51,321 bases of DNA from a virus (Duplodnaviria > Caudoviricetes), in IMG/VR virus record IMGVR_UViG_3300021517_000001, positions 1 to 51,321 of that record. One strand, given 5' to 3'. Below are positions 466 through 33,624 of this stretch, piece after piece. The translations under genes and the position numbers were made by a program. The first letter of the stretch is position 1, and every line of letters begins with the position of its first letter. The notes under the pieces are model-generated. The model had not been told where the DNA came from. It did no database searches and saw only the letters and a program-made list of their open reading frames with translations.

Positions 466-712
466 TGACTGGTTCCTGTATATGTAGCCGCAAGCCCTCG
501 GCGATCATTGTATGCATCTGCTCGGGCGACAAAGTCTCAAGCTGGTGCTCGCACTCGGCGATCCAGTCCTGAACCTTCTCGGGGAAGTCTTCAATTCTAG
601 CACTGTCCACAAGCGCCGACCAATATGCCTGGATCTCGTGGTCGGGGGCTAAGACGTATTTAGGCGTCGCCGTGATAGCTGCGAGTCGGCGGCTATCTTG
701 GGGATTCAGCAT
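434..712 (-). CDS. Small acidic protein, candidate immunity protein for the upstream MuF-ART toxin
   Basis: 92 aa; overlaps the 3' end of the MuF-ART gene, the usual position of MuF-toxin immunity genes. Confidence 0.45.
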   Translation of the reverse strand: MLNPQDSRRLAAITATPKYVLAPDHEIQAYWSALVDSARIEDFPEKVQDWIAECEHQLETLSPEQMHTMIAEGLRLHIQEPVNEGISDNSDE

Positions 713-3700
713 TGTCGACCCCCCTCAGATAGTTTCCTGAATCGACCGCGACGGCTGTGCGATTCAAGATGATATACTCGTTGGTATAGTCGACTTTAAT
801 AGCGTCATAGCCCTCAGCCAGAGCTAAACGACCTAAATCTGAAATCACCTGAATTTCATTGGCCGCCCGCCGCTGCAATCCAGGATCGGCGCCCTGAGCG
901 CGGTATTGGATTTCAAGCACGCGCTGCCGATACAGGACCCGCAACTCGTTCAAGCTAATGACCCGTGCATTCGGATTAACGGCCATGCGGATAATAGCCC
1001 CTCCCGAGCCTGCGTAAGGAGTAACAGATCGAATCACATCATCTACGGTGCGCCCCCCTGAAACAGCTGCGACGTAAGTTCCGTTTCCGAAAGCCCCACG
1101 GCTGCCATAAACATCACCGGTCCGGTACTGCTCTGCGTGGTCTTCCGACGTGACGCCTCTGTAGACTTCCGTCCAACCCCGACCAGAAATCAAGGCGTCT
1201 AACTGTCCCCGGGTTACAACGGCTGGGGTTGAGCTGGCCTCAGGGTTCTCGTCGAACATTTGCCTCAGGATTGTATCTTCTCCCGTTACTGAAGGCAGGA
1301 CTACAGGTTGACGAGAAACCGAGTACTCCGACACTCCTCGGAGACTTGAGGGCCGATACGTTGCAGCAATCTGAGCGGCTAACTCTTCTACGTTGATTTC
1401 TTCAACCTCGGGCCGTTCAATCTCGATCGAGGTCTCGTCGTACCCTTGCTCTAGAGGTGTTTGGCCCTCTCCGGGTTTAACCTCTTCCCCGACCGAACTG
1501 ATGTCGGGGCGGCTAAAGCATCGGCATCGTGGGTGGGCTGGCTGATCCCGTCCATTCCATCCCTCGCCAATAATTCCCACAGAACCATCGCGAGGTTCGC
1601 AAACTGGGCATACCCGTTCATCGCGGACGGTAATCCAAATGGCGCGCTTCACGCCGACATCTAACCACCGCTGCTGGGCACCTTTGTTATACACTCTGGC
1701 GGATTCTGTCTGCGCGATTACCCGAGCGCGTTCAGGATTGTTGAAGATCGCGTTCAGGGATCTCTGCAGCTCTGTCAAGGGCTGGTCAGACTCAACCCAG
1801 GCCGAGACCGCCCGTTGAACTTGCTGCCGCGTGGTTGCATTTAATCCCCTGATCAGTTGGTAGGAATACTGCTGAGCAAAATCAAATGCTTCCTGCGACA
1901 TTTCGTCCCAGCCAGACTCCACTACCGTAGCTCGAATGATGCTTCGGTAGTCGGCGGGAATATTGTTAATCAACGCCTGATTTCCCGCAGCCATGCCTGC
2001 CAGCGTAAGCTGCAGTAGAGGCCCCGGAGCGTCCATGGTTCCGACCCACTCGGAGGCCAGCGCGTCTTCAGCCTGTTCTAAAATGTCTTCAATCTGGTCA
2101 GCGCTAAACCCGCCAGAAACTCGTCCTTCGGTCTTAGACCAGATGTACTGCATGTACCCGAACCAGTCGGTTCCTAGCTCGGCGCTGATTTGATCGTACC
2201 GGTCCCAGTACTGTGCGTACTCATCCGGCGTTGCGGCTTCTTCAGGGTTACTGAAATCGACGCCCCGAAGATACTTAAATGCGTTGTCGAACAATGCAGC
2301 CGAGGGAAGGTTGCTTCTCAGCCCCCAATCAAGAGCTCGTGCAACAGGAGTGTCCTGCAGAGTCACCGGAGAGAAAACGGCTTTGGGGCCCTTCCGGTCC
2401 ACCTTGGTTTTCCAATTACGTAGCTCTCGAACTTGAGCCCCCGATGCAGCTCGAGCAGTCCACGTATGAATCTCAACTCCGTCGTAGGCCAGAGTGTAAT
2501 CGTTCAGGGTGACCGGCCAGTCGAGTTCGATGAAGGGAGGCAGAGACAGCGTGTCTTCTAACGTAGTAAAGCCGAGAACCAGATACGCGTCTTCGTCTTG
2601 CTCAGAGATTCCGAAGTCTGCCATGCTCACGAAAATCGAGGCTCGCAAGACCCTGAAGAACTGGCTTGGGTGGAACCGGATAATCAGGGTCCCGTCAACT
2701 ATCTCGGCGTGCTTCATTCGCAGAGACACCCGGAAAGCCTCGTCTAGAGACAGCTCTCGAATTATTGAGCCGGCGTCAGCAGCAGAGATGCTGCCAGTGC
2801 TCGTAATGATTGGGACGTGCCAGTAAATGTCTTCAAGCCAATCGATGTCGACTATGTCTTGCTGCGCGAGCTCGGTGGCGATTGATCTTTTAGCATACTT
2901 AATGACCTGAGCACCCGGCAAGGGAGAGTAAATGGACAAAGCGCCGGAGGTGCGGGCTGATCTCAAAGGAGTGCCTGCTCCCAGTTGTGGGATCACGGGA
3001 AAGTGGGTTGTGCTGACATTGGCAGGGACTTCAGTCTCATCCTTGCCAGGATGCTCAGGCTTTGTAATAAGAGAGCGCGCAAGCTGGAAGGCCGGGAATC
3101 CTGGAGGTTGTGGGGACGGCATTGACCCGTGCTCGGCCAGCAGCGAAGCGAACTCGTTAATTTTGTCTACAGGCACTGGCGTGTTTGAAATGATAACGAC
3201 GTCTCCGTTTGCTCCGAAGAAAGGCTCCCATCCCTGAGCCTCACGTAATTCGTTGATTGTCATCGCTCCCCGGTCAAACATGGCCAGCAGAGGATCCGGA
3301 GGAGTCTGTAAATAAAAGCGCTCGCGAGGTTCTAAGCCAATCAGCTCGCGCGCTTCGTTGTAATCAGCCAGTCCCGGTGAAGCAAGCATCTGACTGGCGG
3401 ACGTGATTCTGTCAGCGGTCAGATTGCTCAGCGCCGGAACCTTCTTCAGGTCAGGGACAAGAGTATAAAGTTTTTTCTCAGTGAAGTCCCTCCACGCCCA
3501 CTGGGTGTTTAACTTGTCTAGGATGTAGTTAAGTCGCGGCAGCGTCACATCCTGAATGTGCGACCGCTTGATGCTTTCCCGGGTGCTATTCGCAGAGAGA
3601 GGATCGCTGACGTCTCCGGCGCCGATTAAAGCAGGGTTCACTTCAAACGTGACGCAAATATCTCGACGCACTTCGGCCTTTAGGTCGACCATCGCAAGGC

Positions 3701-4457
3701 CTTCAGGTACGTTTGTAATCGGCTGCCACACCCAGTCACCGGACGACACAAAAGTCTTGTGAGCGTTCGTCGCGCCCTTAAAGGCTTTCCAGTCTGCTCG
3801 AGCCTTGTCCAACGTAGCGTCATCAACCACGGTCTTGGCGATCAACATGCCGTCCGGGCGGGCACCGTTGAAAAAGAACGAAGACGCGAACCGGATAATG
3901 TTGGCCTCAGTCGCGACTGGAGAGATCGCAACTTCGAAAGGCGACTTGCCTGAGGCTTGTCGGTTAGGGTTCCATGCAGGAATGTGCACGAGCTGTTCAG
4001 GCTGGAGAATACTATACTGATATCGGTAGAATAAAATCTTCCCGGTATTGTAGTCATACTCGGGATCTACATCTTCGGGGTGCAGCCACTGCAGGCCGGT
4101 TAAGAACCCGTGATCGTTCGGAACCTTTTTAAAATACGCTGCGCCCCAAATGTTCATCGCAACTTCGGCGTGCCAGAGCAGCTCAGGAGAGTTTGAAATA
4201 AAGAAGTCCAGCGGATGCCAATCACCCGGCAAATCGCGATGCCGTGAGTTCTTCACAGAGATCGGAATCTGCGACAATGTGTTCGCCCGAAAGTTAATGC
4301 AAGCAAACGCAGTTGCCGACACGGAGTACAGCCGCGTAGCCTCATGATCGGAAATCTCCCCCGCGCCGTTAATTGCCTGGCGCCAAGAGGATTCAAGAGA
4401 CCGTTTATATTCTGAGGGGCTGTAGATCTCCTCACCGACGGTGTAAAAGATCGTCAT
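693..4457 (-). CDS. Portal protein (HK97-type) fused to degenerate 2H-phosphoesterase-like, MuF minor head and C-terminal ADP-ribosyltransferase-like domains
   Basis: Portal: FFFNGARPDGML, ICVTFEVNPALIG, TINELREAQGWEP. MuF: RARVIAQTES..WITVRDERVCPVC..AHPRCRC. ART-like: VYRGV..GNGTY..YA..GYDAI..NEYIILN. Likely start MTIFY at 4457. Confidence 0.85.
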   Translation of the reverse strand: MTIFYTVGEEIYSPSEYKRSLESSWRQAINGAGEISDHEATRLYSVSATAFACINFRANTLSQIPISVKNSRHRDLPGDWHPLDFFISNSPELLWHAEVAMNIWGAAYFKKVPNDHGFLTGLQWLHPEDVDPEYDYNTGKILFYRYQYSILQPEQLVHIPAWNPNRQASGKSPFEVAISPVATEANIIRFASSFFFNGARPDGMLIAKTVVDDATLDKARADWKAFKGATNAHKTFVSSGDWVWQPITNVPEGLAMVDLKAEVRRDICVTFEVNPALIGAGDVSDPLSANSTRESIKRSHIQDVTLPRLNYILDKLNTQWAWRDFTEKKLYTLVPDLKKVPALSNLTADRITSASQMLASPGLADYNEARELIGLEPRERFYLQTPPDPLLAMFDRGAMTINELREAQGWEPFFGANGDVVIISNTPVPVDKINEFASLLAEHGSMPSPQPPGFPAFQLARSLITKPEHPGKDETEVPANVSTTHFPVIPQLGAGTPLRSARTSGALSIYSPLPGAQVIKYAKRSIATELAQQDIVDIDWLEDIYWHVPIITSTGSISAADAGSIIRELSLDEAFRVSLRMKHAEIVDGTLIIRFHPSQFFRVLRASIFVSMADFGISEQDEDAYLVLGFTTLEDTLSLPPFIELDWPVTLNDYTLAYDGVEIHTWTARAASGAQVRELRNWKTKVDRKGPKAVFSPVTLQDTPVARALDWGLRSNLPSAALFDNAFKYLRGVDFSNPEEAATPDEYAQYWDRYDQISAELGTDWFGYMQYIWSKTEGRVSGGFSADQIEDILEQAEDALASEWVGTMDAPGPLLQLTLAGMAAGNQALINNIPADYRSIIRATVVESGWDEMSQEAFDFAQQYSYQLIRGLNATTRQQVQRAVSAWVESDQPLTELQRSLNAIFNNPERARVIAQTESARVYNKGAQQRWLDVGVKRAIWITVRDERVCPVCEPRDGSVGIIGEGWNGRDQPAHPRCRCFSRPDISSVGEEVKPGEGQTPLEQGYDETSIEIERPEVEEINVEELAAQIAATYRPSSLRGVSEYSVSRQPVVLPSVTGEDTILRQMFDENPEASSTPAVVTRGQLDALISGRGWTEVYRGVTSEDHAEQYRTGDVYGSRGAFGNGTYVAAVSGGRTVDDVIRSVTPYAGSGGAIIRMAVNPNARVISLNELRVLYRQRVLEIQYRAQGADPGLQRRAANEIQVISDLGRLALAEGYDAIKVDYTNEYIILNRTAVAVDSGNYLRGVDNAESPR

Positions 4458-6136
4458 CACCACACCTCCGTAGAGGGGGTTGCTCCGAGTACCAGCGTGT
4501 GACACAAAGCAAGCACAAAGCTGTACGCAAGATCGTCATGATCTCCCGAGGGAGCCGAGAGCGAGCTGCCTTCAATTGCTGCGATCTGAGACATCGTTGC
4601 CTGCGTGTGAATTTTACACATACGGTCCCTGAAGACATCGGCTGCGAGTGACCATGCGAGGGGTTTGGTGGCTGAATTCGTTAGCCACCCCGGTTTGCCG
4701 TCCCTGCCGGGCAAAAGACGTGCAAAGATAGATTGCTCCAAGACCAGGATTACCGCATGGCCATGATTGTTCCTTTCCACCATGACCTGAGCGTTATTGA
4801 AATAGTCGCTGAGGGTCGCGAGATATTGTGCAAAAGCTGAAGGTTGAAACTTCCCTCTGAGAGATGCCACTTCCTCGAGGGTATCTTTTCGAAGCACGGT
4901 CGCCGCGCTGTCATCGCTGGTAGGATTGCCTTCGGCGGGGTCGGCTCCGATGATGTACTTCACTCCCGGCTCGGGCAGGAAGTACACTCTTAGGCTTGGA
5001 ATAGTCGGCAGCATGTAATCAGCTCCCGGCTCTTGCACAATCTTGCCCAAGCGCTCGTAACAAGCATCGATCCACTCGGCCGGAATGCGCTTATCCGCTG
5101 ACTTAGCAGACAAGGCCTGCTCCGGGGTTTCTGGATACATCTCGTGCAGCTCGTCGAGCGCCCCTGTGCGCGCTTTAATCGATTCGGCCAACTCACGGTA
5201 CCAGGCTTCAGTCCTTAAGGGGTGTGCGTGCCAGGGAATGAACACGGTCGCAAATTTGTGCTTGCCTTCTTTGGCGGCCTCGGCCTCGGCCTTGTAAAGC
5301 ATCTTGAACCCGCTGTTCGGCTTGCGCTTGTCCGGTCGGCCGAGAATTACTAGTCGACCTCCCATTTCAATTGTGGGGCGGACCGACACCAATAGCTTAT
5401 CAAAGTCGGCAATAAAATCTGCCTCATCGATGATTGCGTATGTCGCTGTGTAAGTATCACCGCCCGTGGTCGGAAACGCCCGCACAGTCGATTCATTAGA
5501 CAACGTGAACTGATGCGTGTTGCTCTCGATGATTTTCTTGGCTTGCAGCCATCGGGGCAGACGCCAATACATTCCCTTCAACCGGTCATCCAGCAAGTGT
5601 ACTGCTTCGTCGTCACGTCGACTAAAGATAAGTACCTGAGCGATCGGGCGGAAAAGAATCTCGTGAATCGCGTCTGCGATTACTAGCCAGGAGAACCCGA
5701 CCTGCCTTGCTTTCAGTCCGAGGCACAGCTGATTGCGGTCGAGAACGTCAAGCACCTCGGCTTGTGTGGGCCAAAGACGGAAAGGAATCCAATCACGTCG
5801 AACGGAATCTTGAATCTTGCAGTAGGTCTGAACGAAGTAGTTTTTGCTAAGGCCGCAAACAAAGACCTCCTGAGAATAAGCATCCCAGGAGTCGAATTGT
5901 TCGAATAGAGTGTCCTGATCGAACCCGTACCGGTATGTCGCTTCTAGCAACACCTGGTCATGCGTCGGGATCGGGGAGAGCTCCGTCTTCGTTTGCGCGC
6001 TTACCACGTTCAACATCTCCCAGCTTGCGGAACAGTCCCGCAAATGCATCCACGGCGCTTTCGATCTGCCCCTGATCGCCTTCCTTAACCACCTCCACCG
6101 CGGAGCGGCCGTATTCCCTCGGGTGGCGTCTTTCAA
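4457..6136 (-). CDS. terL: Terminase large subunit
   Basis: Walker A LKARQVGFS, Walker B AIIDEADF, nuclease motifs IGADPAEG and HDDL. True start probably near 6013. Confidence 0.93.
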   Translation of the reverse strand: MKDATRGNTAAPRWRWLRKAIRGRSKAPWMHLRDCSASWEMLNVVSAQTKTELSPIPTHDQVLLEATYRYGFDQDTLFEQFDSWDAYSQEVFVCGLSKNYFVQTYCKIQDSVRRDWIPFRLWPTQAEVLDVLDRNQLCLGLKARQVGFSWLVIADAIHEILFRPIAQVLIFSRRDDEAVHLLDDRLKGMYWRLPRWLQAKKIIESNTHQFTLSNESTVRAFPTTGGDTYTATYAIIDEADFIADFDKLLVSVRPTIEMGGRLVILGRPDKRKPNSGFKMLYKAEAEAAKEGKHKFATVFIPWHAHPLRTEAWYRELAESIKARTGALDELHEMYPETPEQALSAKSADKRIPAEWIDACYERLGKIVQEPGADYMLPTIPSLRVYFLPEPGVKYIIGADPAEGNPTSDDSAATVLRKDTLEEVASLRGKFQPSAFAQYLATLSDYFNNAQVMVERNNHGHAVILVLEQSIFARLLPGRDGKPGWLTNSATKPLAWSLAADVFRDRMCKIHTQATMSQIAAIEGSSLSAPSGDHDDLAYSFVLALCHTLVLGATPSTEVW

Positions 6137-10669: not shown

Positions 10670-11230
10670 TCAGCCGTTGTAAATTCTCTTGAGAGCAGTT
10701 ACAGCCCAGCGCTTGTTCCGGATGTCCGGATGATCGATGTTAGCCCGGATCACCTCCATGTAGTACGGGGAGACCGGCCAGACGTATTCTGCGGCCTCAG
10801 CATCCTCGGTTGTGATGTCGGGCCAGCGCAGCCGGTAGTCGTACTGCTCCGGGAGGGGGGTACCGGCATGGAAGGCCAGCCAGGCCTTTTTGACCAGCAC
10901 CTCTTTCTGCGCGCGGTGAAAAAGCTCATCCCCCAACCAATTTGGCACGTCGGTCACAGTTGCGATGGACTCGAGCTTGATGTTGTTTTGAAAGCCCCGG
11001 GCAACCCACTCCCCGATGATGATCTTCAAATAGATCTGGAGGGACGCCTCGTACCCATACCACTGCCGGACTATGAGCTGCCCCTTATGCCTGGAGCCCA
11101 CCGGATCAGTGCGAGTACTGCGAAGCATCGTAAGAACTCCCAGAGCCTCCCTGCGCTGACTTCCCAGCCGCATGTCGTCGAGGCATCGAGCCGTTTGTAC
11201 GAAGCTAGGATAGGGCAGGAAGGTCATCAT
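10670..11230 (-). CDS. Pyrimidine-dimer DNA glycosylase (DenV/Pyr_excise; MSMEG_6728-like) protein
   Basis: N-terminal MxTFLPYPSF...LDDMRLGSQRREA, WYGYE, W.ARGF.N, PNWLGDELFH, YVWP. Confidence 0.8.
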   Translation of the reverse strand: MMTFLPYPSFVQTARCLDDMRLGSQRREALGVLTMLRSTRTDPVGSRHKGQLIVRQWYGYEASLQIYLKIIIGEWVARGFQNNIKLESIATVTDVPNWLGDELFHRAQKEVLVKKAWLAFHAGTPLPEQYDYRLRWPDITTEDAEAAEYVWPVSPYYMEVIRANIDHPDIRNKRWAVTALKRIYNG

Positions 11231-11233
11231 GGC

Positions 11234-11581
11234 TTATCCTCCCGTCTTCCGGGGTCTCCTCATGATGCGATCGTTGTCCGGGTTAAGCTCATGCGTCGCC
11301 CAGGTCTTGGCATCGTTCTTTCGGCAGACCGCTTCCATCATAGACTCCACGTCTTCGAGCATCGCTCCGTGGGCGAGCATTACTCCCAGCACTGTAACAA
11401 TGACATCCACCCCCTCCTCTATCACCACAAAGAGGTGTTTCTGAGTAGCAGCTTCCCGCAGTTCCTCGACCTCAGAATCAAAAGCGTTGATTGCTCCTGC
11501 GCTTGTCGGGCGGAAATCCGGTCCCCTGAATCTTCTGTGCAGGTCGACGGTCGATCTCCATAGCGCTGCGAACTTTGACAT
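11234..11581 (-). CDS. MazG-like NTP pyrophosphohydrolase
   Basis: ExxE (SEVEEL) and EExxD (EEGVD) metal motifs, later KN motif; 115 aa, all-helical. Confidence 0.65.
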   Translation of the reverse strand: MSKFAALWRSTVDLHRRFRGPDFRPTSAGAINAFDSEVEELREAATQKHLFVVIEEGVDVIVTVLGVMLAHGAMLEDVESMMEAVCRKNDAKTWATHELNPDNDRIMRRPRKTGG

Positions 11582-13980: not shown

Positions 13981-14459
13981 TGCGCTGCCTCCCCTGAGCT
14001 GATCAGCCGCAAGTAGTGCGACAGATCATCCCGATGCGAGCTGTGCTCATGCAGCTTTCGCCGCTTCGACAGATTGCTCAGAATGAGCGCCTGCGTGCTT
14101 GCATCCAACTCACGCCACTCGCGCAGCGTCTCTTCGTCCGAGACTGCCTGCAGCTTTTTCCCCGCTGCCAGCAGCTTACCGTACTGCAGCTGCACACCTA
14201 TCCGAAACTCGATCACGAGCTCGTCCATCTTGCTGCCGATCAGCCGCTGACCGTTGAAGCCCATGCGCACCGCGTTCAGCAGATTAAGAACGCGCCACAC
14301 CCGATTCAAATCTTGCCCGTCGCCGATGTACTGCTTGAGCACTTCGATATTCTCGCGTGCGCCTTCTTCACTGCCCCACTTGCCGAGCAGCCCCACGCGT
14401 ACAGCCTGCCACGCAGAGCTATACATGACCTGAAGCTTGATGTCTTGTATCCTGTGCAT
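13977..14459 (-). CDS. Hypothetical protein
   Basis: 160-aa ORF with AGGAGGT SD. Confidence 0.7.
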   Translation of the reverse strand: MHRIQDIKLQVMYSSAWQAVRVGLLGKWGSEEGARENIEVLKQYIGDGQDLNRVWRVLNLLNAVRMGFNGQRLIGSKMDELVIEFRIGVQLQYGKLLAAGKKLQAVSDEETLREWRELDASTQALILSNLSKRRKLHEHSSHRDDLSHYLRLISSGEAAQ

Positions 14460-14491
14460 AACGCACCTCCTAGCTCTTTGACCCTAACCAA

Positions 14492-14538
14492 ATTATACCC
14501 ACAATACCTAGCCAAGGTCAACCGGGTATTGTGGGTAT
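14492..14538 (-). promoter_or_regulatory. Promoter TTGACC-18-TATAAT overlapped by a 14-bp perfect inverted repeat (operator-like)
   Basis: ATACCCACAATACC (14495-14508), 16-bp spacer, GGTATTGTGGGTAT (14525-14538). Confidence 0.7.
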
Positions 14539-14562
14539 TTGATGAGACGTTGGTGAGAGGGC

Positions 14563-16989
14563 TTACTGCTTTTGAGAGCTTCTGATCTGTGTTCTCTTTG
14601 ACATCTCATCGTAAGAGCAGGGGCCAGTAAGCTCGATGTGCGCGTGCTGGTCGTTTACATCCCAAGCAGGAACCCAGCTATCGCTTTCCGAGTGCCAGTA
14701 CCATTGGGTCTCTTGCACGGGGCTCACGTCGGCCCAATTGGGTCCGATCTCTATCTCGGCCTTGATCGGGACGTTGATGTCTAAGGGGAGCCGATTCTCC
14801 ATGCAGTTATAGACCAGGTCAACGACTTCCGGGAGCTCTTCGATCTTTACCACCAGGTCGATTTCATCATGCACTGTGATGACGATGCGTGTTAAAAGTT
14901 CCCGCGCGAGGAGTTCGCTGTGCAGGTGGATCAGAGCATTTAGCGTGATGTCCGAGGCCGTTGACTGAATCGGGAAGTTCAAAGCCTGTCGCTGTGCTTC
15001 ACCTCGGGTCGATTGGTGAATGAAGGGCCACCGGCGGATCCTGCCTAGGGGAGTAGACAGCTCTTGCTTTGACAGTACGTCACGCCTCTGACCTGCCATC
15101 CAGTCTCGAAGGCGGCTGAACTCGTTCAGGTAGTTGTCAATGAACTCCTGAGCCATCTGTTCAGTCCAATGGTACTGCCGAAGCTCTCGACCGTATGCGA
15201 TCGAAAACGCTCCGCGACCGTAAAGCACCCCGAAGTCCACGAACTTGGCCGCGTAGCGTTGCTTCTTAGAAACATCGTTGGGGTCAATTTGGAACATCGC
15301 CGCTGCCACTTCGCTGTGAATATCCCGCTCATCGATGAAGGCCTGGATCATGTTCGAGTCTTGACTCAGGTAAGCCGCCACGCGCAGCTCGAGCTGAGAG
15401 TAATCTGCCTTCATCCAAACATATCCCGGGGGCGGCACGAAGGCTCTTCGGATAGCCGGACCTGCCATTTGAGGGATGGTTTGAAGCGCGGGGTCATTGC
15501 AGCTCAGTCTGCCTGTAGATGTGCCGGCCAGGTTGAAAGACGCGTGCACGCTGTTCGTCAGGTCGGTCAGAGCGAGCAGTCCGTCGACGTAAGTACCGAG
15601 GATCTTTTTGCGGCCCCGGAAGTCCTCAACCAGGCCCGCGAGGTCAGCAGCCGGCGTGTTGGGCATCTCTGTCTGCACCCAGGCGAGCATGTCCTTGTCC
15701 GTGGTGCGGGACGGATACGGGATACCGAGCTTGTCATAGAACACCTCGGCCAGCTGCTTGGGGGAGCCTGGATTGAAAGAAGCTAGCTCAACCAGGTTTC
15801 GAATGTCCTCCAGAACGTCTTCGATCTCATCCCGGATCTGCATACCGTAGTCAGTGAGGTACCCTACGTCGATCAGCGTTCCGTTGCGTTCAATGTCGGC
15901 CAGAGCGATCGTCGCCGGGAAGAGCAGTGTGTCCAGCACCTGACGCAGCGAAGCCGGCTCTTCTTCAAGCTCTTGCCTCAGATCATAATACAGCCGCGCG
16001 GTGCACCACAGATCGACCCCAAGGTAAGTATAGAGCGGCCCCCAGTCCCTCTGATCAGCAGGCTTGCTCCAAAACGCTTCGAAGTCGAATTTGTAATCTG
16101 TGAGGTCATACCTCACCCGGGCGATCGTCTTCAGACCGTGAGGAGACAGCCTGTCCGCAATCGGCCTCTCATCGAGGACGTAGTTCATCAGCAGTGTGTC
16201 GGCCACGTTCCGCACAGGGGTCCGCATCTTCAACCACTCGGCCAGGAACTGCAGATCGAACTTGGCGTTGTGAAAGACTACCGGCCCGAAGTAATCGCGG
16301 AAGAAATCTTTCACGCAGTATCGCACGACCTCGTTCTTCACCAGGTGCCAGGGGATGATCACAACCTCTCCCCCGTCAAGCTCTGGATATAAAGCCCCGA
16401 ACCCGATCGCTTCAATCTCATGCTCTTTGACCCTAAGACCCGAGGTCTCCAAGTCGCATGAGATAAATGAGGCTTTGCTCAGCCGGCACAGAGCGCTGCG
16501 CAGTTCTTCGGGGTCATCGCAGATAGTGTACCAGACCGTTGGGGGTTCCATCGGAGCGTCAATCCGGGCCAGCTTAGAAATGTCAGCCACGAGGTCCCTA
16601 AAGCTGTCGGGCTCTTTCATCACTTGGTATGCCGAAAACGTGGGGATGGCTACTCCGAAGAGGTCGTCAGCTAGCTTTAGCTTGATTGCTCGGCCGCGCT
16701 CTTTGAAGATGTTCCCGAGTTTGTTTTGCTTGTACACCGCGGCCAGGGATGCAGGCCCCATTAACAGCACTTTTTGCGGCTTGTGCTGGGCCAGGATTCG
16801 AGCAACGTTTCGACCCGCTACTGCCATGTCCGCATCAGACGGCTTGCCGCTAGTTACTGTGTGAGGCACAGCATACTCGAAGATAACCTCGTCTAGGTTG
16901 AACCCGCACGCTTTCAAGCACCGCTGTACTAAAGTGCTCTGATCAGTCTGCCTCTTAATCGGCCATTCCTGGATCACTAGGGTAGTCAT
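14563..16989 (-). CDS. polA: Family A DNA polymerase with N-terminal UDG-like domain and 3'-5' exonuclease
   Basis: ExoI CDLETSGL, ExoII FHNAKFDL, ExoIII YLGVD; motif A ADYSQLELR, motif B RYAAKFVDFGVLYG, motif C VHDEI; N-terminal UDG-like KPQKVLLMG..IPTFS. Confidence 0.95.
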   Translation of the reverse strand: MTTLVIQEWPIKRQTDQSTLVQRCLKACGFNLDEVIFEYAVPHTVTSGKPSDADMAVAGRNVARILAQHKPQKVLLMGPASLAAVYKQNKLGNIFKERGRAIKLKLADDLFGVAIPTFSAYQVMKEPDSFRDLVADISKLARIDAPMEPPTVWYTICDDPEELRSALCRLSKASFISCDLETSGLRVKEHEIEAIGFGALYPELDGGEVVIIPWHLVKNEVVRYCVKDFFRDYFGPVVFHNAKFDLQFLAEWLKMRTPVRNVADTLLMNYVLDERPIADRLSPHGLKTIARVRYDLTDYKFDFEAFWSKPADQRDWGPLYTYLGVDLWCTARLYYDLRQELEEEPASLRQVLDTLLFPATIALADIERNGTLIDVGYLTDYGMQIRDEIEDVLEDIRNLVELASFNPGSPKQLAEVFYDKLGIPYPSRTTDKDMLAWVQTEMPNTPAADLAGLVEDFRGRKKILGTYVDGLLALTDLTNSVHASFNLAGTSTGRLSCNDPALQTIPQMAGPAIRRAFVPPPGYVWMKADYSQLELRVAAYLSQDSNMIQAFIDERDIHSEVAAAMFQIDPNDVSKKQRYAAKFVDFGVLYGRGAFSIAYGRELRQYHWTEQMAQEFIDNYLNEFSRLRDWMAGQRRDVLSKQELSTPLGRIRRWPFIHQSTRGEAQRQALNFPIQSTASDITLNALIHLHSELLARELLTRIVITVHDEIDLVVKIEELPEVVDLVYNCMENRLPLDINVPIKAEIEIGPNWADVSPVQETQWYWHSESDSWVPAWDVNDQHAHIELTGPCSYDEMSKRTQIRSSQKQ

Positions 16990-17801
16990 AGATCCATCCA
17001 GTTGGGCTGAATTCGGTGCATCACTGAACCGATATTGTACTGAGCGAGGTGCTTTTCATCCGCGGTCATTGTGCGGGTAAAGTAATCTTCAGGCCTTCCC
17101 GGGTTCTCGGGAGAAGCCCCGTAGCGCCTTGGAATCTTAACCCCGGCCATTGCATAGGTGAACGGCTTGACTGAGTCGACGGAGCGAATCCAAGGAAAGC
17201 GAAGAGCCGCCTGGCTGAGAGACACCCAATCAGAACTCATGCCCAGCAAGTGAACGTCCATGCGAGGCAGTAGCGCTTTCATCGGAGCTACGAACCTCTC
17301 AATGAGGTTGACCCGACCGCCTGGCCAGCTGTCGTAGACCTTTGATACCCCCACTGTGAAGGGGCGGTTTTCAAACATCTGATGATGCGCCTGCACGAGG
17401 ATGTTAAGAGCCTTGCCCCACCCGTAGATGGTCTCTGCTTGAGGTACAAGCATCAGGCGAATATCGTTGGCCCACGGAGAGCTCATTGCTCGAGACAGGG
17501 CTAGCTCTTCCATGCAGCTCAAGCTAAGGTCTATCGACTCGTCCATCTTCTGCATGACATCTGGGATGACCATTTCAGAGGCGTTGATGCTTACGGCCGC
17601 ATCGAGCAAAGCCCGGACATCGTTTGCTCCCTCGCCTAACTCGAAAGCCGAATTGTCCAGAGTGATGTAAGCAAATAACCCTGTGCGCGCGTAATGGTCT
17701 CGGTACTCATCGTTGCTCAGCAGGTGGTAAAGCGCCAAGTGGTACTCTCCACCGGCGTAGTCACGGAGATGCGGGACGGGGCAGATCAATCCTAATTTCA
17801 T
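16986..17801 (-). CDS. TGT/DpdA-like TIM-barrel protein (candidate 7-deazaguanine transglycosylase)
   Basis: ITLDNSAFELG, VIPDVM, VHLLG and IRSVDS motifs match the TGT-fold pattern; lies in the que cluster. Confidence 0.65.
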   Translation of the reverse strand: MKLGLICPVPHLRDYAGGEYHLALYHLLSNDEYRDHYARTGLFAYITLDNSAFELGEGANDVRALLDAAVSINASEMVIPDVMQKMDESIDLSLSCMEELALSRAMSSPWANDIRLMLVPQAETIYGWGKALNILVQAHHQMFENRPFTVGVSKVYDSWPGGRVNLIERFVAPMKALLPRMDVHLLGMSSDWVSLSQAALRFPWIRSVDSVKPFTYAMAGVKIPRRYGASPENPGRPEDYFTRTMTADEKHLAQYNIGSVMHRIQPNWMDL

Positions 17802-18159
17802 TGGGTTGCTCCCTCGTGAACCTCTTGTAAGCCATTAGCAGGGTGATGTACCCAAGAAGGTCCTGCCATGAGTCATCCAGCGACTCAAAGTTAGCAGACT
17901 CTCCCCGACGAAGAAGGTTCTGAATGCGTCCGAGTTTGATCCCGATGAGCACCATGATGACTGTGTCGATGCTCGCGCCCGCAACAGAAGCTGCCGTTTC
18001 GAAGTTATTCCAGGCATGCCCAAAAGCTGAGTAGTCCCCGCCCTTCAGCACCAGCAGCTGCTCCATGTGAGCAATAGTCTGCACAATGTGCTCCGGGTTG
18101 AGCATCAGGTTTGCGAGCTCGTCTAGAACCTTTAAGATGTAGTCTGATCCCTGAACCAT
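17761..18159 (-). CDS. DUF1599 / nucleotide-modification-associated-domain-like protein
   Basis: KGGDYS..NF..KLGRI.NL..ESLDDSWQDLLGY pattern. Confidence 0.7.
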   Translation of the reverse strand: MVQGSDYILKVLDELANLMLNPEHIVQTIAHMEQLLVLKGGDYSAFGHAWNNFETAASVAGASIDTVIMVLIGIKLGRIQNLLRRGESANFESLDDSWQDLLGYITLLMAYKRFTREQPNEIRIDLPRPASP

Positions 18160-18172
18160 GATCGTTCTCCTG

Positions 18173-18196
18173 AGGGGAGGTTTTTACTCCTCCCCT
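18173..18196. other. Intergenic hairpin after queC
   Basis: AGGGGAGG...CCTCCCCT. Confidence 0.5.
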
Positions 18197-18209
18197 GGTG
18201 TTTACGAGA

Positions 18210-18983
18210 CTAGCGGTAAGCGGCCCCGTTTCGAGGGCTTGATTTCAGAAACCCCGGATTCGCACCGGTCGGCCAGGGAATCTCCTCAGCGTAAGGGATA
18301 GGGTCGATGTACCCCGCCGTCCGGAATGCTTCGATCCGCTCAACGCACGTCGCGCATTTGCCGCACGCGGGCTGCTCACCCTTGTAGCAAGAGTGGGTTA
18401 AAGCCAGCGGCGCGTTTACGACCGCAGCGCGCATGACGATGTCTGCCTTGCTGATGTGCACGTACGGTGCTTCTAAGAACACTTTCCCCGAAGTCGCGAC
18501 ATGGATTGCTTCCGTCATCGCATCGATGAATTCCGGCCGGCAGTCCGGGTAGTGATAGTTGTGAGCGTCATCCCCGTGCACAGCGACGTAGACCTTGCCT
18601 GCGTCGACAGTCAGGGCGTAAGTCACGGCCATCGCGATGAAGTTCATGTTGCGGTTCGGAACGACCGTGGGCTGAGCACCGTGACGAGCTGCCAGCTCTT
18701 GATACGATCCCAGCCCGATGTCTTCGATCGGAGCATCTGCATCGACCAGTGTGCTGCCCGCACCTGCAAAGATTCGAGGCAAGTCAATTCGGGTGTACAA
18801 CACACCAAAGTGCTCAGCGACGTCTTCAGCCGCCTTCAGCTCGACAGCATGCTTCTGCCCGTAGTTGAACCCAACTGCAAACACATTGCTTCGGCCGAAC
18901 AGAGACACTGCTTCAGTCAGCAGCGTGCAACTATCCATGCCCCCGGAAAAAGAGACGACTGCTCGGCGAAATGAAGGTACCAT
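18210..18983 (-). CDS. queC: 7-cyano-7-deazaguanine synthase
   Basis: SGGMDS, YGQKH, VPNRN, YPDCRPEF, SCY...CGKCATC. Confidence 0.96.
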   Translation of the reverse strand: MVPSFRRAVVSFSGGMDSCTLLTEAVSLFGRSNVFAVGFNYGQKHAVELKAAEDVAEHFGVLYTRIDLPRIFAGAGSTLVDADAPIEDIGLGSYQELAARHGAQPTVVPNRNMNFIAMAVTYALTVDAGKVYVAVHGDDAHNYHYPDCRPEFIDAMTEAIHVATSGKVFLEAPYVHISKADIVMRAAVVNAPLALTHSCYKGEQPACGKCATCVERIEAFRTAGYIDPIPYAEEIPWPTGANPGFLKSSPRNGAAYR

Positions 18984-18984
18984 G

Positions 18985-19596
18985 TTACTTGCCAGACCTC
19001 ATGTGAGTAATGGCCTCCGCACGGAGGGCCGCATCGGTTAAAAAGATCCCCCGCGAAGCAGAGGTGGTGGTGGAGGACTCATGCGCGTGCACCCCCCGGC
19101 TAGTCATGCACGTATGCATGACATCGTACAGCGTCACGATGACTCCCTGAGGCTCAAGCACTGACATGAGGCAATCAGCTACCTGCCAGGTGATTTGCTC
19201 CTGCAGCTGCAGTCGACGGGCGAAGATATCCACCACTCGGGCCAGCTTGCTCAAGCCGATGACGTACGTGCCCGGCAGGTATGCAATCGCAGCTTTACCT
19301 ATGAACGGGCTCATGTGGTGTGCGCAGGTTGAGTACAGTGGGATGTCTTTCACGACGACTAGGTCTCGCTCGTGCCCGTTGTTCGGAAACACCGTGAGCA
19401 CGTCTTTGGGATTCATTTGATATCCCTTGAACCACTCTTCGAGCATAGCTTTGGCTACCCGTCCGGGTGTATCCGTGAAGTTTGGATCGCTCAGGTCGAT
19501 TTCGAGAGCCATCAGGACGTCTTTGATCGCCAGCTCGATGCGAAGCCCTTTGCGTATCTCGTTATCGACGACAAGGATGTTTCTGTCGAATTTCAC
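18985..19596 (-). CDS. folE: GTP cyclohydrolase I
   Basis: TPGRVAK, STCAHHMSPF, GLSKLAR, RLQLQE, HTCMTSRG; likely GTG start at 19596. Confidence 0.95.
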   Translation of the reverse strand: MKFDRNILVVDNEIRKGLRIELAIKDVLMALEIDLSDPNFTDTPGRVAKAMLEEWFKGYQMNPKDVLTVFPNNGHERDLVVVKDIPLYSTCAHHMSPFIGKAAIAYLPGTYVIGLSKLARVVDIFARRLQLQEQITWQVADCLMSVLEPQGVIVTLYDVMHTCMTSRGVHAHESSTTTSASRGIFLTDAALRAEAITHMRSGK

Positions 19597-19597
19597 G

Positions 19598-20362
19598 TCA
19601 CACCCCCAACGCATGGCCCCAAAGCAGCACATGCTGCTGAGCGCCTACATTGATTTCCCACAGGGTCTGCTGGCCGAAAAAGCTCAGCGCAGTTTCAGTC
19701 AGCCACTTGTATCGACGCAGCACGTCCGTGGAGGTGTCCGTAGCTAGTGTCCCAGTCGACAGGTAGATCGGAGTGTTGCCGACCCAATACGCCCCCTTGG
19801 TGAGGATGTGATTGACGTAGTTTAAGTCCTCCTGATCGAACACAACAAACTTGAAGAATGTCCGCCCGATCAATTGCTCCCTCTGGATATTGATCATGAA
19901 CATTTTGACGGCTTCTAGCGGGGTCGATCGTCCCGCTGAAGGGGGCTTTGGAGAGACCACGATCAGATCGGCTTTGCCCATCCAGGCATTCCAAAACGTT
20001 CCCTGAGTTTCGACCGCTACACGGTTCCCGGTAACGTGGAACAGTCGCACCAGCTCAGACAGGTCCCACAAAGCTGGATTGCCTCCGCTAAAGACGACCC
20101 ACGGGTACCGACCGGGCAGAGCAAGTACCTTCTCGTGAATCTCCTCAGCAGTCATGTTGGGCAGCTTTCGCACAAGAGCCGGGTCGACCGCATGCATCGA
20201 ATCGCACCACAAGCACCTGTAGTCGCAGCCGCCGAAGCGAACGAAGTAACAGGGGCTTCCAGTGTTCGGTCCTTCTCCTTGAATCGTGGGGCCGAATATC
20301 TCTGCGACTTTAAAAGTCCCCGACTTCATAATGACGTCTTGCTGGGAAATCATTTCAGCCAT
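19598..20362 (-). CDS. queE: 7-carboxy-7-deazaguanine synthase (radical SAM)
   Basis: EIFGPTIQGEG, CDYRCLWCDS, SGGNP, VETQG, VSPK, QQH. Confidence 0.95.
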   Translation of the reverse strand: MAEMISQQDVIMKSGTFKVAEIFGPTIQGEGPNTGSPCYFVRFGGCDYRCLWCDSMHAVDPALVRKLPNMTAEEIHEKVLALPGRYPWVVFSGGNPALWDLSELVRLFHVTGNRVAVETQGTFWNAWMGKADLIVVSPKPPSAGRSTPLEAVKMFMINIQREQLIGRTFFKFVVFDQEDLNYVNHILTKGAYWVGNTPIYLSTGTLATDTSTDVLRRYKWLTETALSFFGQQTLWEINVGAQQHVLLWGHALGV

Positions 20363-21003
20363 GTGACTGTCGCGACCCCCGTTTCGGTCTCCCACACGCG
20401 GACGCTTTGCACCCACACGTGCTCATATGCCGGTTGTGCGCCCGCAAGAGCGTTCAGCCCCGTCACCATCTCGTCGAAGATCCATTGGGCAAGGTACTCG
20501 GCAGTCGTGACCGGGATGTCTAGTAGTGCGACCTTGCCAAAGCCCTTGTTTCGAAAGAAGCTTTCAACCCTGTCCTTCTTTTGCCATCGACCATCGACGA
20601 CTGCACTTCCGTGATCTTGATCGCCGTAAAAGTCGAAGCCGAAGAATCGATAATCGAAAGGATCAAAAGCGCCGAACCATTTGAGTGGAACGGTCCCCAG
20701 CAGCAGCGCATGGTCAAGCTTATTGTGAATCGCCATGTTGTAGATCTGCTTGAGGTCGGCAAAGTCCATGACCATGCCAGCAGCCGGATCGATCAAGTTC
20801 GGATCATCCGCAGCACCGCCGATGACGTTTCCTCCGACTTCAACTTCGACCTTGTAATTATGCCCGTGAAGGTTAGCACAAGGCCCCTCATGATGCGGCA
20901 GTTGGTGAGCAGCTGAGATTGCGCCGCAAACCTTGCTGATGGTTGTCGTTGTGTACGGCTCGAGCAGCCTTTGCTTGCGAGCCTCAAAGGTGTCTTCAAT
21001 CAT
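20350..21003 (-). CDS. queD: 6-carboxy-5,6,7,8-tetrahydropterin synthase
   Basis: AAHQL..C.NLHGHNY, GMVMDFADLK, LDH, TTAEYLA, VWETE. Confidence 0.92.
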   Translation of the reverse strand: MIEDTFEARKQRLLEPYTTTTISKVCGAISAAHQLPHHEGPCANLHGHNYKVEVEVGGNVIGGAADDPNLIDPAAGMVMDFADLKQIYNMAIHNKLDHALLLGTVPLKWFGAFDPFDYRFFGFDFYGDQDHGSAVVDGRWQKKDRVESFFRNKGFGKVALLDIPVTTAEYLAQWIFDEMVTGLNALAGAQPAYEHVWVQSVRVWETETGVATVTWLK

Positions 21004-21059
21004 GATACGCCTTTCAGAGGCAGGCTTTGACCTGCCTCGAATGTTACATCAGTGGCAAG

Positions 21060-21581
21060 CTAGAGCAGTGTCCGGCGCGCTTCGCCGTCCTCGGTCAAGA
21101 CTTCTTCCGGCTCGCCCGACGCGGTTTCGGTGTCTGACCAGGGGGGCGCGAACGTGTTAGCTTCGCTGTACTGCCCACTGCCCACCTCTGCATGAGCTTC
21201 GACGATGCGCTGTACCCGCGCGCGATCCTGACCCTGGTATTTTTCCAAGGTGGTTTGAATGCGCACAGGCAGGCCGATGACGCTGGGTTCCACCAGAGTG
21301 TTCTCTTCGTCCACGTCGAGCTCGATCACAGCATCCGAGCTGAAGCCGAGGGCGACGAACGTGTCTCTCAAGCGGAACAATGCATTGGGAGCCAGGCTGG
21401 TCATCATCCAGACCTTGCGGCCTTCGTGCTCGCCTTCGACGATCTGGAACTCCCAGTTCAAATACGGGTGGGTGCCAGTCTGCGACTGCCGCATTGTGAC
21501 GCCGGTGATGACCGCTTCATGCTCCCCTTCGGGAACGGTGTCTGATGGAATCTCCCCAAAGTTAACGGTGATACGAGCCAT
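21060..21581 (-). CDS. DUF669-like single-stranded DNA-binding protein
   Basis: VPEGEHEAVI, EFQIVEGEHEGRKVW, acidic C-terminal tail; follows the Sak4-like gene. Confidence 0.75.
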   Translation of the reverse strand: MARITVNFGEIPSDTVPEGEHEAVITGVTMRQSQTGTHPYLNWEFQIVEGEHEGRKVWMMTSLAPNALFRLRDTFVALGFSSDAVIELDVDEENTLVEPSVIGLPVRIQTTLEKYQGQDRARVQRIVEAHAEVGSGQYSEANTFAPPWSDTETASGEPEEVLTEDGEARRTLL

Positions 21582-27224: not shown

Positions 27225-28184
27225 CTAGAACATGTTCGCAAGCGTGTGGGCAGCCTTCTCGAGTTCCTCTTTTCCGCGCAAATCATATCGCCGCGTCGTC
27301 TCAGACAAAGCATGGCCAGCCAGTTGCTGCACCAAGAAAATATCCACGCCGTTGAGCAGAAGGCTCGTAATGAACGTTTTGCGCAGGTCGTGGGGCTTTA
27401 CATAATGAATGCCGGCAGCCAGACATCTGCGCTTGAGAACGTCCATGATTGTTTGTCCGGAGATCGGCTCTAGCTGGGGAAGCCAGTCAACGCGGACAAA
27501 TAACGGACCGGGAGCGACGCCTCGAACAGCAATCCACTGATCAACAATCTCTCGAGCCCGGGAGTTGATAAACAGCCACCTGTCCTTGTTGCCTTTGCCT
27601 TTAGCCAGGATCAACTCGTAGCCGTCGTTGTGGGGGACTAGGTCTTCTAAAAAGACACTGACCGTCTCTTCCCGACGAGCCCCCGTTGCAACCATAAATG
27701 AGATAAGCGCCTTGTCTCGGACGCCTCCAGCGCCTCCAGCGGCCTCGCAGGCATCTAACAGCTTCGTCAGTTCTGCGGCTTCCAGCGACCGGCCTTTAGG
27801 AAGGGTGACCCCAACCACCCACTCGAAATCCAGCCGACGATTCATCTCTTCGACTGAAATGAGCTCGAGGCGCCAGCATGCCTTAATGACGCCGCGCAGA
27901 CCTGCTAGGTACAGGTTCGCGGTTGAGTGAGCGTAGTCCTGCATGAGGACCGATCGAATCTTCAGAATGACAGGCAGCTTGAGCATGTGCCAGGGGAACG
28001 AGTAGATCTCAGCCAGGCGGACATCCTTAGTCTGCATGATGATCTTGAGCACCGCCAGCAACGCAAAGCGCATGGTCGATTGCGCCGTGGGGCTGAGAGT
28101 ATTCAAGTACATTGTGACGGGGTCAAATCCGTCAGGGAATTGGACGGGAGCGATGTCCACGTCTTGCGGGATGATAGTAGTCAC
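27225..28184 (-). CDS. Tyrosine recombinase/integrase
   Basis: Catalytic R (GARREE), K (KGKGNK), HxxR (HDLRK), H (AGH), Y (RRYD). Confidence 0.93.
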   Translation of the reverse strand: MTTIIPQDVDIAPVQFPDGFDPVTMYLNTLSPTAQSTMRFALLAVLKIIMQTKDVRLAEIYSFPWHMLKLPVILKIRSVLMQDYAHSTANLYLAGLRGVIKACWRLELISVEEMNRRLDFEWVVGVTLPKGRSLEAAELTKLLDACEAAGGAGGVRDKALISFMVATGARREETVSVFLEDLVPHNDGYELILAKGKGNKDRWLFINSRAREIVDQWIAVRGVAPGPLFVRVDWLPQLEPISGQTIMDVLKRRCLAAGIHYVKPHDLRKTFITSLLLNGVDIFLVQQLAGHALSETTRRYDLRGKEELEKAAHTLANMF

Positions 28185-31190: not shown

Positions 31191-31637
31191 TCAGCTCGCG
31201 CTGATGTATATTTTGCTGACCCTGTCAAGAGCTTTTCTTTCCAACGCCGGCTGCGTCGAAAGAATTACATCCGACAAAAACAACAAGGCTTCAGCTTTCA
31301 CGGCTTCCCGGCGGAATCGAATCGTCACCATGCAATCTTTCGTCGGGTCGATAGCCCTTACCTGATATCCTTGGCGGTGTAAGAACTTAGCCATCCGATG
31401 CAGCCGCTGATGCACTTCGGCCTGTTCTGTAGCGTTTAGGTCCGTCCACATTGTCGGCCGCGTCTGGATCGACGGAGCTTCTGTACCGGACCCACTCCCA
31501 GTCTCCCTCTCGAGACTGTTGCCAGTACCCTTCCATTTCTTCGGTAGCACAATCTTCATTGTAGTTGTCCTCATACCACTCGCCAAGAATCCACATACAA
31601 ACAACCTTTCATATCGATACTTAGAGGGCAAATGCAA
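31191..31637 (-). CDS. Hypothetical protein (start uncertain)
   Basis: ORF ending at the bidirectional terminator. Confidence 0.5.
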   Translation of the reverse strand: MHLPSKYRYERLFVCGFLASGMRTTTMKIVLPKKWKGTGNSLERETGSGSGTEAPSIQTRPTMWTDLNATEQAEVHQRLHRMAKFLHRQGYQVRAIDPTKDCMVTIRFRREAVKAEALLFLSDVILSTQPALERKALDRVSKIYISAS

Positions 31638-31638
31638 T

Positions 31639-31681
31639 TAAAAAGATCCCCTCAACGTGCTAAGTGCTCGAGAGGGGATCT
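31639..31681 (-). terminator. Intrinsic terminator
   Basis: AAAAAGATCCCCTC...GAGGGGATCT. Confidence 0.65.
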
Positions 31682-31685
31682 CTAA

Positions 31686-32201
31686 TTACCGCGCGGAACG
31701 GACTTGTGTCATCAAAGTAATCAGAGCAGCTTTCGCTTGATATACGGTGTCCCCGAGATACAAGGCCTCAGCCGACGCCGGATACACAGCTTCAGTCTGA
31801 GATGTGAAGGCAAGTTCTCGTTTGCCTCCCGGACCCCACGGATTGAACGCCGCAGTCGTTGCGTAGTACTTGCGCGTCCACGGATCGCACCGCACGGCAG
31901 AGAATCGGAAGTCGATGCCCTTTGCCTGAGCTTCGTGATAAATGCGCGCCAGCATCGTGGTCATTTTGCGCGCGCGCTCCCGGCTTACCTCATGAATCTG
32001 CTCGAGAACTTCGCACCCGAGATCAGTCACCGGGAAATGTTCCCGCTCGAGAGGATTCTCGATGGCCAGGCCTTTAGACTGCAGCCAGCGAAGGGTGCGA
32101 ACCGGCACTGCTGCTTGAGCTAGCCCGTAGTTGTACAAACGCATGAGAGCTACATACTGCTTGTCGTTTAGTTTGACATCGGTCGTGAATTCAGTTTGCA
32201 T
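31686..32201 (-). CDS. Hypothetical protein (possible winged-helix-like N-terminus)
   Basis: Start MQTEF with GGAGG SD and promoter motif at 32220-32240. Confidence 0.6.
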   Translation of the reverse strand: MQTEFTTDVKLNDKQYVALMRLYNYGLAQAAVPVRTLRWLQSKGLAIENPLEREHFPVTDLGCEVLEQIHEVSRERARKMTTMLARIYHEAQAKGIDFRFSAVRCDPWTRKYYATTAAFNPWGPGGKRELAFTSQTEAVYPASAEALYLGDTVYQAKAALITLMTQVRSAR

Positions 32202-33207: not shown

Positions 33208-33208
33208 G

Positions 33209-33616: not shown

Positions 33617-33624
33617 GTCGCCTC

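Follow-up and report, generated by a model that had tools for sequence, protein, structure and literature searches.

Described DpdA subfamilies and the locus under study

Replacement of guanine by 7-deazaguanines shields phage DNA from many restriction enzymes. Among the DNA preQ0 (7-cyano-7-deazaguanine) insertases known as DpdA, two further subfamilies, DpdA3 and DpdA4, were named by Hutinet et al. 2023 (PMC10516641). The founder of DpdA3, which has homologues in Campylobacter phages, is CGPG_00065 of Cellulophaga phage phiST, while that of DpdA4 is gp69 of Halovirus HVTV-1, a DUF6610 protein. As set out in that paper, G is completely replaced in the DpdA3 phages phiST, CP220, and Flavobacterium phage immuto_2-6A, whereas replacement ranges from <0.1% to 30% for bacterial DpdA (bDpdA), DpdA1, DpdA2, and one tested DpdA4 virus. 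Its authors argue for post-replicative insertion and report that activity tests of DpdA3 in E. coli failed; the group is biochemically uncharacterised. We describe here a protein of 271 amino acids (aa), designated P0001, that is encoded at 16986..17801 on the minus strand of IMG/VR record IMGVR_UViG_3300021517_000001, a viral record of 51,321 bp that was analysed whole and is called the window below. By sequence comparison it is a DpdA3 member, in a large and mostly uncultured sub-clade. No other DpdA group has been linked to complete replacement, and P0001 puts a complete, uncultured sediment phage in DpdA3. P0001 is not a new enzyme class; what is new is the breadth, the signature, and the neighbours of a subfamily already named.

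The DpdA1 protein of Enterobacteria phage 9g (gp3, 317 aa) occupies the same slot as P0001, between que/folE genes and polymerase genes, in a module with a DUF669 protein, an ATPase, and a helicase. Its motifs are collinear with those of P0001 (LDSGAF, HGFG, and CDSS against LDNSAF, HLLG, and VDS), but profile similarity is not significant: hhalign of the P0001 family against 9g DpdA1, taken alone or as a 24-sequence alignment, gave a probability of 1-3%, with a global alignment that is meaningless. Replacement in 9g is partial, up to 27% as 2'-deoxyarchaeosine (dG+; PMC6884629), and the DpdA1 group as a whole is put at 0.1-30% in the DpdA3 paper (PMC10516641).

The gene and its family

The first-pass annotation, made from the DNA letters and their open reading frames (ORFs), had reported a 271-aa ORF with the motifs LDNSAFELG, IPDV, HLLG, and RSVDS at 16986-17801, and had given no strand. 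All four motifs are read directly in the minus-strand translation, at residues 48-56, 79-82, 184-187, and 206-210; the plus-strand reading of the same interval has many stops. The ORF opens with an ATG that has a Shine-Dalgarno-like GAGGGAG upstream, and its TGA stop and the ATG of the polymerase gene that follows share bases in an ATGA. A phmmer search with P0001 against 1.84 billion cluster representatives found 1361 proteins at E<=1e-3, 377 at <=1e-10, and 43 at <=1e-30, and the 150 homologues listed are mostly of about 250-300 aa and match the query over nearly its full length. With 1361 homologues, most of those listed near full length, P0001 is a real gene rather than a chance frame. The start codon is supported as well, since the N-terminus is conserved from residue 1 among relatives (consensus MKxxLIPPIPxL). 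At 1361 clusters at 50% identity, DpdA3 is far larger than its few cultured examples. In profile searches of genome contigs, none was found with P0001 alone, and a six-sequence alignment reached just two contigs of metagenome-assembled genomes.

The phiST protein used in our comparisons, 259 aa long, is CGPG_00065 by its RefSeq locus tag. Residues 1-245 of P0001 align with it over 255 aa at 24% identity (E 3e-10), motif falling on motif. A profile of A1, an alignment of 105 P0001 relatives, was run over whole phage records. It matched CGPG_00065 at E 1.5e-36 (profile positions 1-261 of 266), a Brevundimonas phage StAshley protein at E 1.7e-20, and, in Campylobacter phage CP220, a single protein, CPT_0056, at E 3.2e-17, and was silent on the records of 9g (DpdA1) and HVTV-1 (DpdA4). 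On its sequence we take CPT_0056 as the probable DpdA3 homologue of CP220. It is 22% identical to the phiST protein (E 6e-7), a greater distance than that between phiST and P0001; any family that holds both the phiST and the CP220 proteins therefore holds P0001.

Residues D49, N50, D81, H184, L186, G187, D209, and N256 are identical in all of five named phage proteins and in at least 101 of the 105 relatives, the three aspartates each in 104. R206 and Q121 are conserved too, the latter position being Gln in four of the five named proteins and His in one. Over the 110-sequence set formed by A1 and the five named proteins, lengths run from 241 to 300 aa, and a regular expression for CxCxxC matched none (0/110). 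P0001 has only two cysteines, C7 and C96, so that a CxCxxC...H zinc site is impossible in it, just as the first-pass annotation had said. The same annotation had remarked on DNS in place of DSG, and P0001 does read D-N-S where DpdA1 of 9g reads D-S-G. Both traits are common to the family, and are therefore hallmarks of DpdA3, not peculiarities of P0001. What had to be given up is the idea of an undescribed divergent subfamily: P0001 belongs with the named DpdA3, scoring better against the founder than the CP220 protein does and keeping the same invariant residues. Phylogeny, proposed as a check at the outset, gave a partial answer. A FastTree analysis of the 110 sequences grouped the close relatives of P0001 apart and left the known DpdA3s on long branches outside that clade, where their nesting is not settled.

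P0001 thus compares with the DpdA3s of phiST (259 aa) and CP220 (258 aa) in its size, in its full-length alignment (with phiST), in the signature positions D-N, D, Q, HxLG, D, and N, and in having no zinc motif; the phiST gene, like that of P0001, has genes for 7-deazaguanine synthesis on one side and a polymerase gene on the other. It differs from them in sequence, at just 22-24% identity, and in belonging to a clade whose 1361 representatives are almost wholly uncultured and which is separated from phiST and CP220 in the tree. A complete preQ0 set with QueC accompanies it, whereas the DpdA3 paper describes phiST as without the full pathway and the Campylobacter phages as stopping at 7-carboxy-7-deazaguanine (CDG; PMC10516641). 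Its gene is operon-fused to a family A polymerase gene, while DpdA3 of phiST is one gene away from PolIII-alpha, and, unlike those of phiST and CP220, it has no adjacent P-loop kinase-like gene. In two cultured, tractable relatives, StAshley and Bacillus phage BSP7, the homologue is annotated as a hypothetical protein only.

Predicted fold

An AlphaFold model of P0001 built from the 105-sequence alignment has eight beta strands alternating with helices (predicted local distance difference test, pLDDT, 95.2; predicted template modelling score, pTM, 0.92); the single-sequence model was poor and unusable (pLDDT 42.1). When the former was compared with the Protein Data Bank (PDB) by Foldseek, the matches listed, ranks 1-50, were all tRNA-guanine transglycosylases (TGTs), archaeosine TGTs, or the DNA preQ0 insertase DpdA, with a best E of 1.4e-6 and template modelling (TM) scores by query of 0.48-0.65 among them. 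Structural comparison with 48,161 chains placed four TGT-superfamily members first, and the best matches among solved structures are DpdA, archaeosine TGT, bacterial TGT, and QTRT2. The ESM Atlas model of the P0001 sequence matched a Tgt cluster at TM 0.72, and the Atlas cluster nearest by features carries Pfam family PF23859 'DpdA' on 17% of its members. These predictions support a TGT-type (beta/alpha)8 barrel, or triosephosphate isomerase (TIM) barrel, for P0001, and so bear out its initial description as TGT/DpdA-like.

At the sequence level, P0001 had no match in Pfam (E<=1), PHROGs, NCBIfam, or the PADLOC models. Neither PF01702 (TGT) nor PF23859 matched any of the 105 relatives at E<=0.1. 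The PADLOC DpdA model is the family matched by most relatives, yet by just two of the 105 (best E 6e-4); these faint matches, and those of three of the 105 to DUF6610 (best E 0.0036), agree with the fold result. PDB sequence searches with P0001 and with the A1 profile returned no TGT, the best match being an unrelated thiaminase at E 0.13, and the same search with 9g DpdA1 returned no chain either. PF01702 and PF23859 likewise found nothing in the window genome and five phage records, a silence that carries little weight because the accepted DpdA1 of 9g was missed too. No signal was obtained by hhalign of A1 against an E. coli Tgt alignment, in which the sequences are all >83% identical. With the TGTs (bacterial TGT, archaeosine TGT, QTRT1/2), P0001 shares the barrel fold and, probably, the active-site geometry; unlike them, it has no PF01702 match, no zinc subdomain, no RNA-binding insertions, and no C-terminal domains, and it is found in a phage DNA-replication context.

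Predicted active site and proposed reaction

For bacterial DpdA, PMC10164549 proposes Asp95 as general acid/base and Asp256 as nucleophile, with the base read by Asp130 and His181 and stacked upon by Phe99 and Leu236; D95, D130, and D256 are called invariant there across the TGT and DpdA families. In the P0001 model, D49 lies at the end of strand 3, D81 just after strand 4, Q121 after strand 5, H184-L-L-G187 at the end of strand 7, and D209 in strand 8, while F53 stands at D49+4 as Phe99 stands at Asp95+4. Local hhalign alignments of the P0001 family with 9g DpdA1, which are not significant, set D49, H184, and D209 opposite the Asp of LDSGAF, the His of HGFG, and the Asp of CDSS, respectively. 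Judged by strand order and by these alignments, D49, D81, and D209 would be the equivalents of the active-site aspartates of DpdA.

The barrel of P0001 is minimal. The structure of Salmonella Montevideo DpdA (PDB 7ui4; 413 residues; 14% identity to P0001 in structural alignment) has the insertions Ins1, Ins2, Ins3, and Ins8 and a CXCX2CX22H site, none of which is present in P0001; the enzyme is listed as replacing <0.1% of G (PMC10516641). Ins8 is described as 128 residues that form a DNA surface and are pinned by the zinc site (PMC10164549). In the P0001 model, strand 8 and the last helix, helix 8, are joined by about 35 residues, and the other loops are short. The absence of a zinc-binding part, already seen in the first-pass annotation, therefore extends to the large insertion after strand 8 that holds nucleic acid in bacterial DpdA and TGTs.

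The best explanation, to which we assign a probability of roughly 70%, is that P0001 is a DpdA3 transglycosylase that puts preQ0 in place of G in phage DNA. FolE, QueD, QueE, and QueC would make the free base preQ0 from GTP, and the P0001 barrel would swap guanine for it at C1' of deoxyribose. From the position and conservation of the residues we infer the same double-displacement exchange as in TGT and bacterial DpdA, with D209 as the probable nucleophile and D49 as the probable general acid/base; D81, Q121, and the aromatic residue at D49+4 may hold the base. The glycosyl substrate would be DNA, modified at or just after replication as in the published proposal, and the P0001 gene is coupled in translation to that of the phage DNA polymerase. 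The expected product is phage DNA with 2'-deoxy-preQ0 (dPreQ0) for G, the replacement probably being extensive, like that of other DpdA3 phages; such DNA would be protected from restriction.

Gene neighbourhood in the window

An exact 127-bp direct repeat at 1-127 and 51195-51321 is consistent with a complete, circularly assembled genome. The window holds 86 ORFs of at least 100 aa, and the long ones with family matches are all on the minus strand. The stretch 14000-21500 was found in four sediment-metagenome sequencing runs from two studies, no RNA run being among those that contain it.

In the direction of transcription, the neighbours run SNF2 helicase, resolvase-like protein, Sak4-like ATPase, DUF669 protein, QueD, QueE, FolE, QueC, a 132-aa protein (p132), the DpdA3-like protein, and family A polymerase. 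All of the following are on the minus strand: a QueD-like member of the 6-pyruvoyl-tetrahydropterin synthase family at 20350..21003 (PF01242, 1.8e-27), a QueE-like radical SAM enzyme at 19598..20416 (phrog_2076, 9.2e-40), the GTP cyclohydrolase I FolE at 18985..19632 (PF01227, 1.6e-59), and the 7-cyano-7-deazaguanine synthase QueC at 18210..18983 (PF06508, 2.7e-53). Nowhere in the window genome was a QueF, DpdL, DpdM, DpdN, or amidotransferase-fused QueC recognised, which leaves preQ0, or its precursor 7-amido-7-deazaguanine (ADG), as the predicted base.

The p132 gene (17761..18159, minus) and the beginning of the DpdA3-like gene have 41 nt in common. Its product is DUF1599-like ('nucleotide modification associated domain 1'), with matches to phrog_1485 at 1.5e-11 and to DUF1599 at E 0.015. 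It also matches, at E 8.8e-7, a hidden Markov model (HMM) of a 14-locus cluster that occupies the same slot, a 116-aa protein directly upstream of the homologue. A relationship between p132 and MazG was considered and is unsupported (hhalign probability 2-4%). Farther along, at 11234..11581 (minus), a 115-aa MazG/PRA-PH-like nucleotide pyrophosphohydrolase (phrog_671, 3.6e-7; PF01503, E 0.002) is a possible accessory of the pathway. This gene adjoins one for a pyrimidine-dimer DNA glycosylase at 10670-11230 (minus; PF03013, 8.5e-14).

Synteny across related loci

To compare gene order we used the best 80 of 131 confirmed IMG/VR candidates that encode a P0001 relative, searching them with the window proteins by tblastn. 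PolA was found in 74 of these 80 loci, and in 73 it is the next window-homologous gene downstream of the P0001 homologue. QueC was found in 61, FolE in 57, QueE and Sak4 in 51 each, DUF669 in 50, and QueD in 26. In StAshley the order is QueC-QueD-QueE-small ORF-homologue-polymerase, and in BSP7 it is QueC..QueD..QueE..FolE..P-loop protein-homologue-polymerase, with overlapping genes. Common descent of a replication module surely accounts for part of this synteny; however, the arrangement spans homologues that are just 27-39% identical to P0001, from phages of hosts that include Brevundimonas, Bacillus, and Cellulophaga.

Thirteen of the 80 loci have no que or folE gene, but in five of them the sequence ends within 1.6 kb on the upstream side, and seven of the other eight have a gene for a Vut_1 (YhhQ-family) membrane protein. 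This gene (PF02592, 1.6e-29 for a representative) occurs in ten loci (L031, L036, L038, L041, L050, L055, L067, L068, L071, and L075), seven of which have no que gene within 6 kb. We take the Vut_1/YhhQ family to be preQ0/preQ1 transporters, and the pattern suggests that in loci with Vut_1 and without que genes a 7-deazapurine base is imported instead of made. Either source of the free base, synthesis or import, is in keeping with a base-exchange enzyme in the phage.

The slot directly upstream of the homologue varies. In the window lineage it is filled by DUF1599-like proteins (p132 and the 14-locus cluster), by MazG in seven loci, and by DUF6378 in six. In 28 of the 80 loci (e.g. L023:2747-3499) it is held by a 251-aa protein with a faint CxxCxxCC (YkgJ-type) match at E 0.037. 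Hutinet et al. 2023 connect DpdM, the preQ1 methylase, with YkgJ of E. coli (PMC10516641); a link between the 251-aa protein and DpdM is possible.

The polymerase partner

The gene directly downstream of that for P0001 (14563..16989, minus) encodes an 808-aa family A DNA polymerase with a 3'-5' exonuclease (PF00476, 2.3e-95; PF01612, 1.5e-12). Its best match among GenBank phages is below 29% identity, and the window phage is accordingly without a cultured close relative. Polymerases of related loci carry an N-terminal domain of the uracil-DNA glycosylase (UDG) superfamily, PF03167, at E 4.7e-32 in L043, 1.1e-27 in L073, 1.3e-16 in BSP7, and 3.1e-17 in StAshley (coordinates L043:6816-7310, L073:6743-7240, L095:6680-7200, and L001:7802-8300), and these domains keep CxxC, GEAPG, and HPxxVLR-type motifs. 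The N-terminal ~150 aa of the window polymerase form a degenerate version (PF03167, E 0.088) from which CxxC and GEAPG are gone, as is the case in about five relatives. That a base-flipping UDG fold cooperates with the bare barrel is speculation on our part. A complex prediction for PolA residues 1-360 with P0001 scored 0.00, which counts neither way.

In four loci (L047, L052, L058, and L065), two full-length family A polymerase ORFs lie in tandem downstream of the DpdA3-like gene.

DNA or free nucleotide as substrate

A different reading keeps the family and the chemistry and changes the substrate; that the enzyme may act on free nucleotides had been suggested in the first-pass annotation. 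P0001 would act on a free deoxynucleotide (dGMP, dGDP, or dGTP), making 7-deaza-dGMP, for instance, by base exchange before replication; kinases would convert the product to its triphosphate, dGTP would be cleared by pyrophosphatases, and the modified nucleotide would enter DNA through the co-transcribed polymerase. We regard this as possible but doubtful. The compact family signature and the recurrent neighbours, UDG-domain family A polymerases here and P-loop kinase-like genes elsewhere, bear on the choice.

Several observations favour the nucleotide substrate. The first two are the barrel itself, with some 35 residues where DpdA has a 128-residue, zinc-pinned Ins8, and the lack of CxCxxC throughout the 110 sequences. 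Complete replacement is typical of nucleotide-pool pathways. It is also what the published survey gives for DpdA3 phages, against <0.1% to 30% in the other groups (PMC10516641). In four named phage lineages that are distant from one another, DpdA3 has small P-loop kinase-like genes as immediate neighbours: CGPG_00066 in phiST (AAA_18, 1e-6), a neighbour in Chryseobacterium phage MA9V-3 (AAA_18, 1.5e-7), CPT_0055 (an HD and AAA_33 fusion, 8.1e-13) on one side and CPT_0057 (AAA_28, 1.7e-12) on the other in CP220, and BSP7_056, with Walker A at its N-terminus. The P-loop neighbour regions are L090 (CP220 53542-56035), L002 32048-32545, L096 5528-5998, and L095 5339-5902. Small genes of MazG type or related to it neighbour the DpdA3 gene in phiST (a MazG-like one, two genes further upstream), in the window (p132), and, among 76 related loci, in at least 25. 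A modified-dGTP route and 'undetected 2'-deoxyribosyltransferases' were possibilities that Hutinet 2019 did not close off (PMC6884629).

On the other side, the characterised relatives in the cited papers act on tRNA or DNA, and the authors who named DpdA3 argue that insertion is post-replicative (PMC10516641). Our literature search found no paper that assigns DpdA3 a nucleotide substrate. Among the gene clusters present in at least five loci of the window lineage, none within 6 kb proved kinase-like, and there is no small P-loop kinase near the window gene. The P-loop neighbours elsewhere could be ATPase helpers, given that bacterial DpdA is reported to need DpdB and ATP (PMC10164549). Net charge and isoelectric point do not discriminate, both the A1 family and DpdA1 being acidic.

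Extended to the subfamily, the nucleotide reading would make DpdA3 enzymes generally, P0001 included, deoxynucleotide base-exchange enzymes that supply the missing first step of a pre-replicative pathway, one completed by the neighbouring P-loop kinases and MazG/HD phosphohydrolases and with a product used by the UDG-domain polymerase. This we hold to be improbable; if true, it would account for the disappearance of all nucleic-acid-binding modules as well as for a 100% replacement that only DpdA3 phages show. In a weaker variant, the bare barrel acts on DNA only when docked to the replisome. Overall, we give insertion of preQ0 into DNA roughly twice the odds of exchange on nucleotides.

Very unlikely, in our view, is a TIM barrel of some other function, for example in sugar-phosphate or nucleotide metabolism, that resembles TGTs merely by its barrel and sits near que genes by descent of the module. 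Against it stand the TGT-superfamily identity of the four best chains and of every Foldseek match listed, the rank of DpdA among the PADLOC models matched by relatives, and the putative Asp triad, which sits where strands 3, 4, and 8 end and so matches DpdA in strand order. The linkage to que genes, furthermore, holds across phages of Bacteroidota, Campylobacter, Bacillus, and Brevundimonas whose proteins are just 22-29% identical; the silence of PF01702 and PF23859, which would speak for such a barrel, weighs little, as it extends to 9g DpdA1.

Membership of P0001 in DpdA4 (DUF6610, the archaeal-virus type), DpdA1, DpdA2, or bacterial DpdA instead of DpdA3 is scarcely credible, for weak DUF6610 matches do occur in three of the 105 relatives and in BSP7_057 (best E 0.0036 and 0.0039), but P0001 itself has no match to DUF6610 (PF20314) and the A1 profile is silent on HVTV-1 and 9g.

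Other features of the window genome

Three observations lie outside the 7-deazaguanine module. From 31191 to 47892 (minus), some 17 kb of consecutive ORFs, two of them with products of 1243 and 1056 aa, yielded a single PHROG match at E<=1e-3, at E 0.00055 (47050-47892); these are presumably tail genes of an unsampled lineage. The replication module of this genome, which has terminal direct repeats, includes a tyrosine integrase gene at 27225-28184 (minus), placed between primase and helicase block. Finally, a 1270-aa ORF at 693-4505 (minus) joins a portal region (residues 48-393) to a minor-head/head-morphogenesis region (~830-1044), an apparent fusion.

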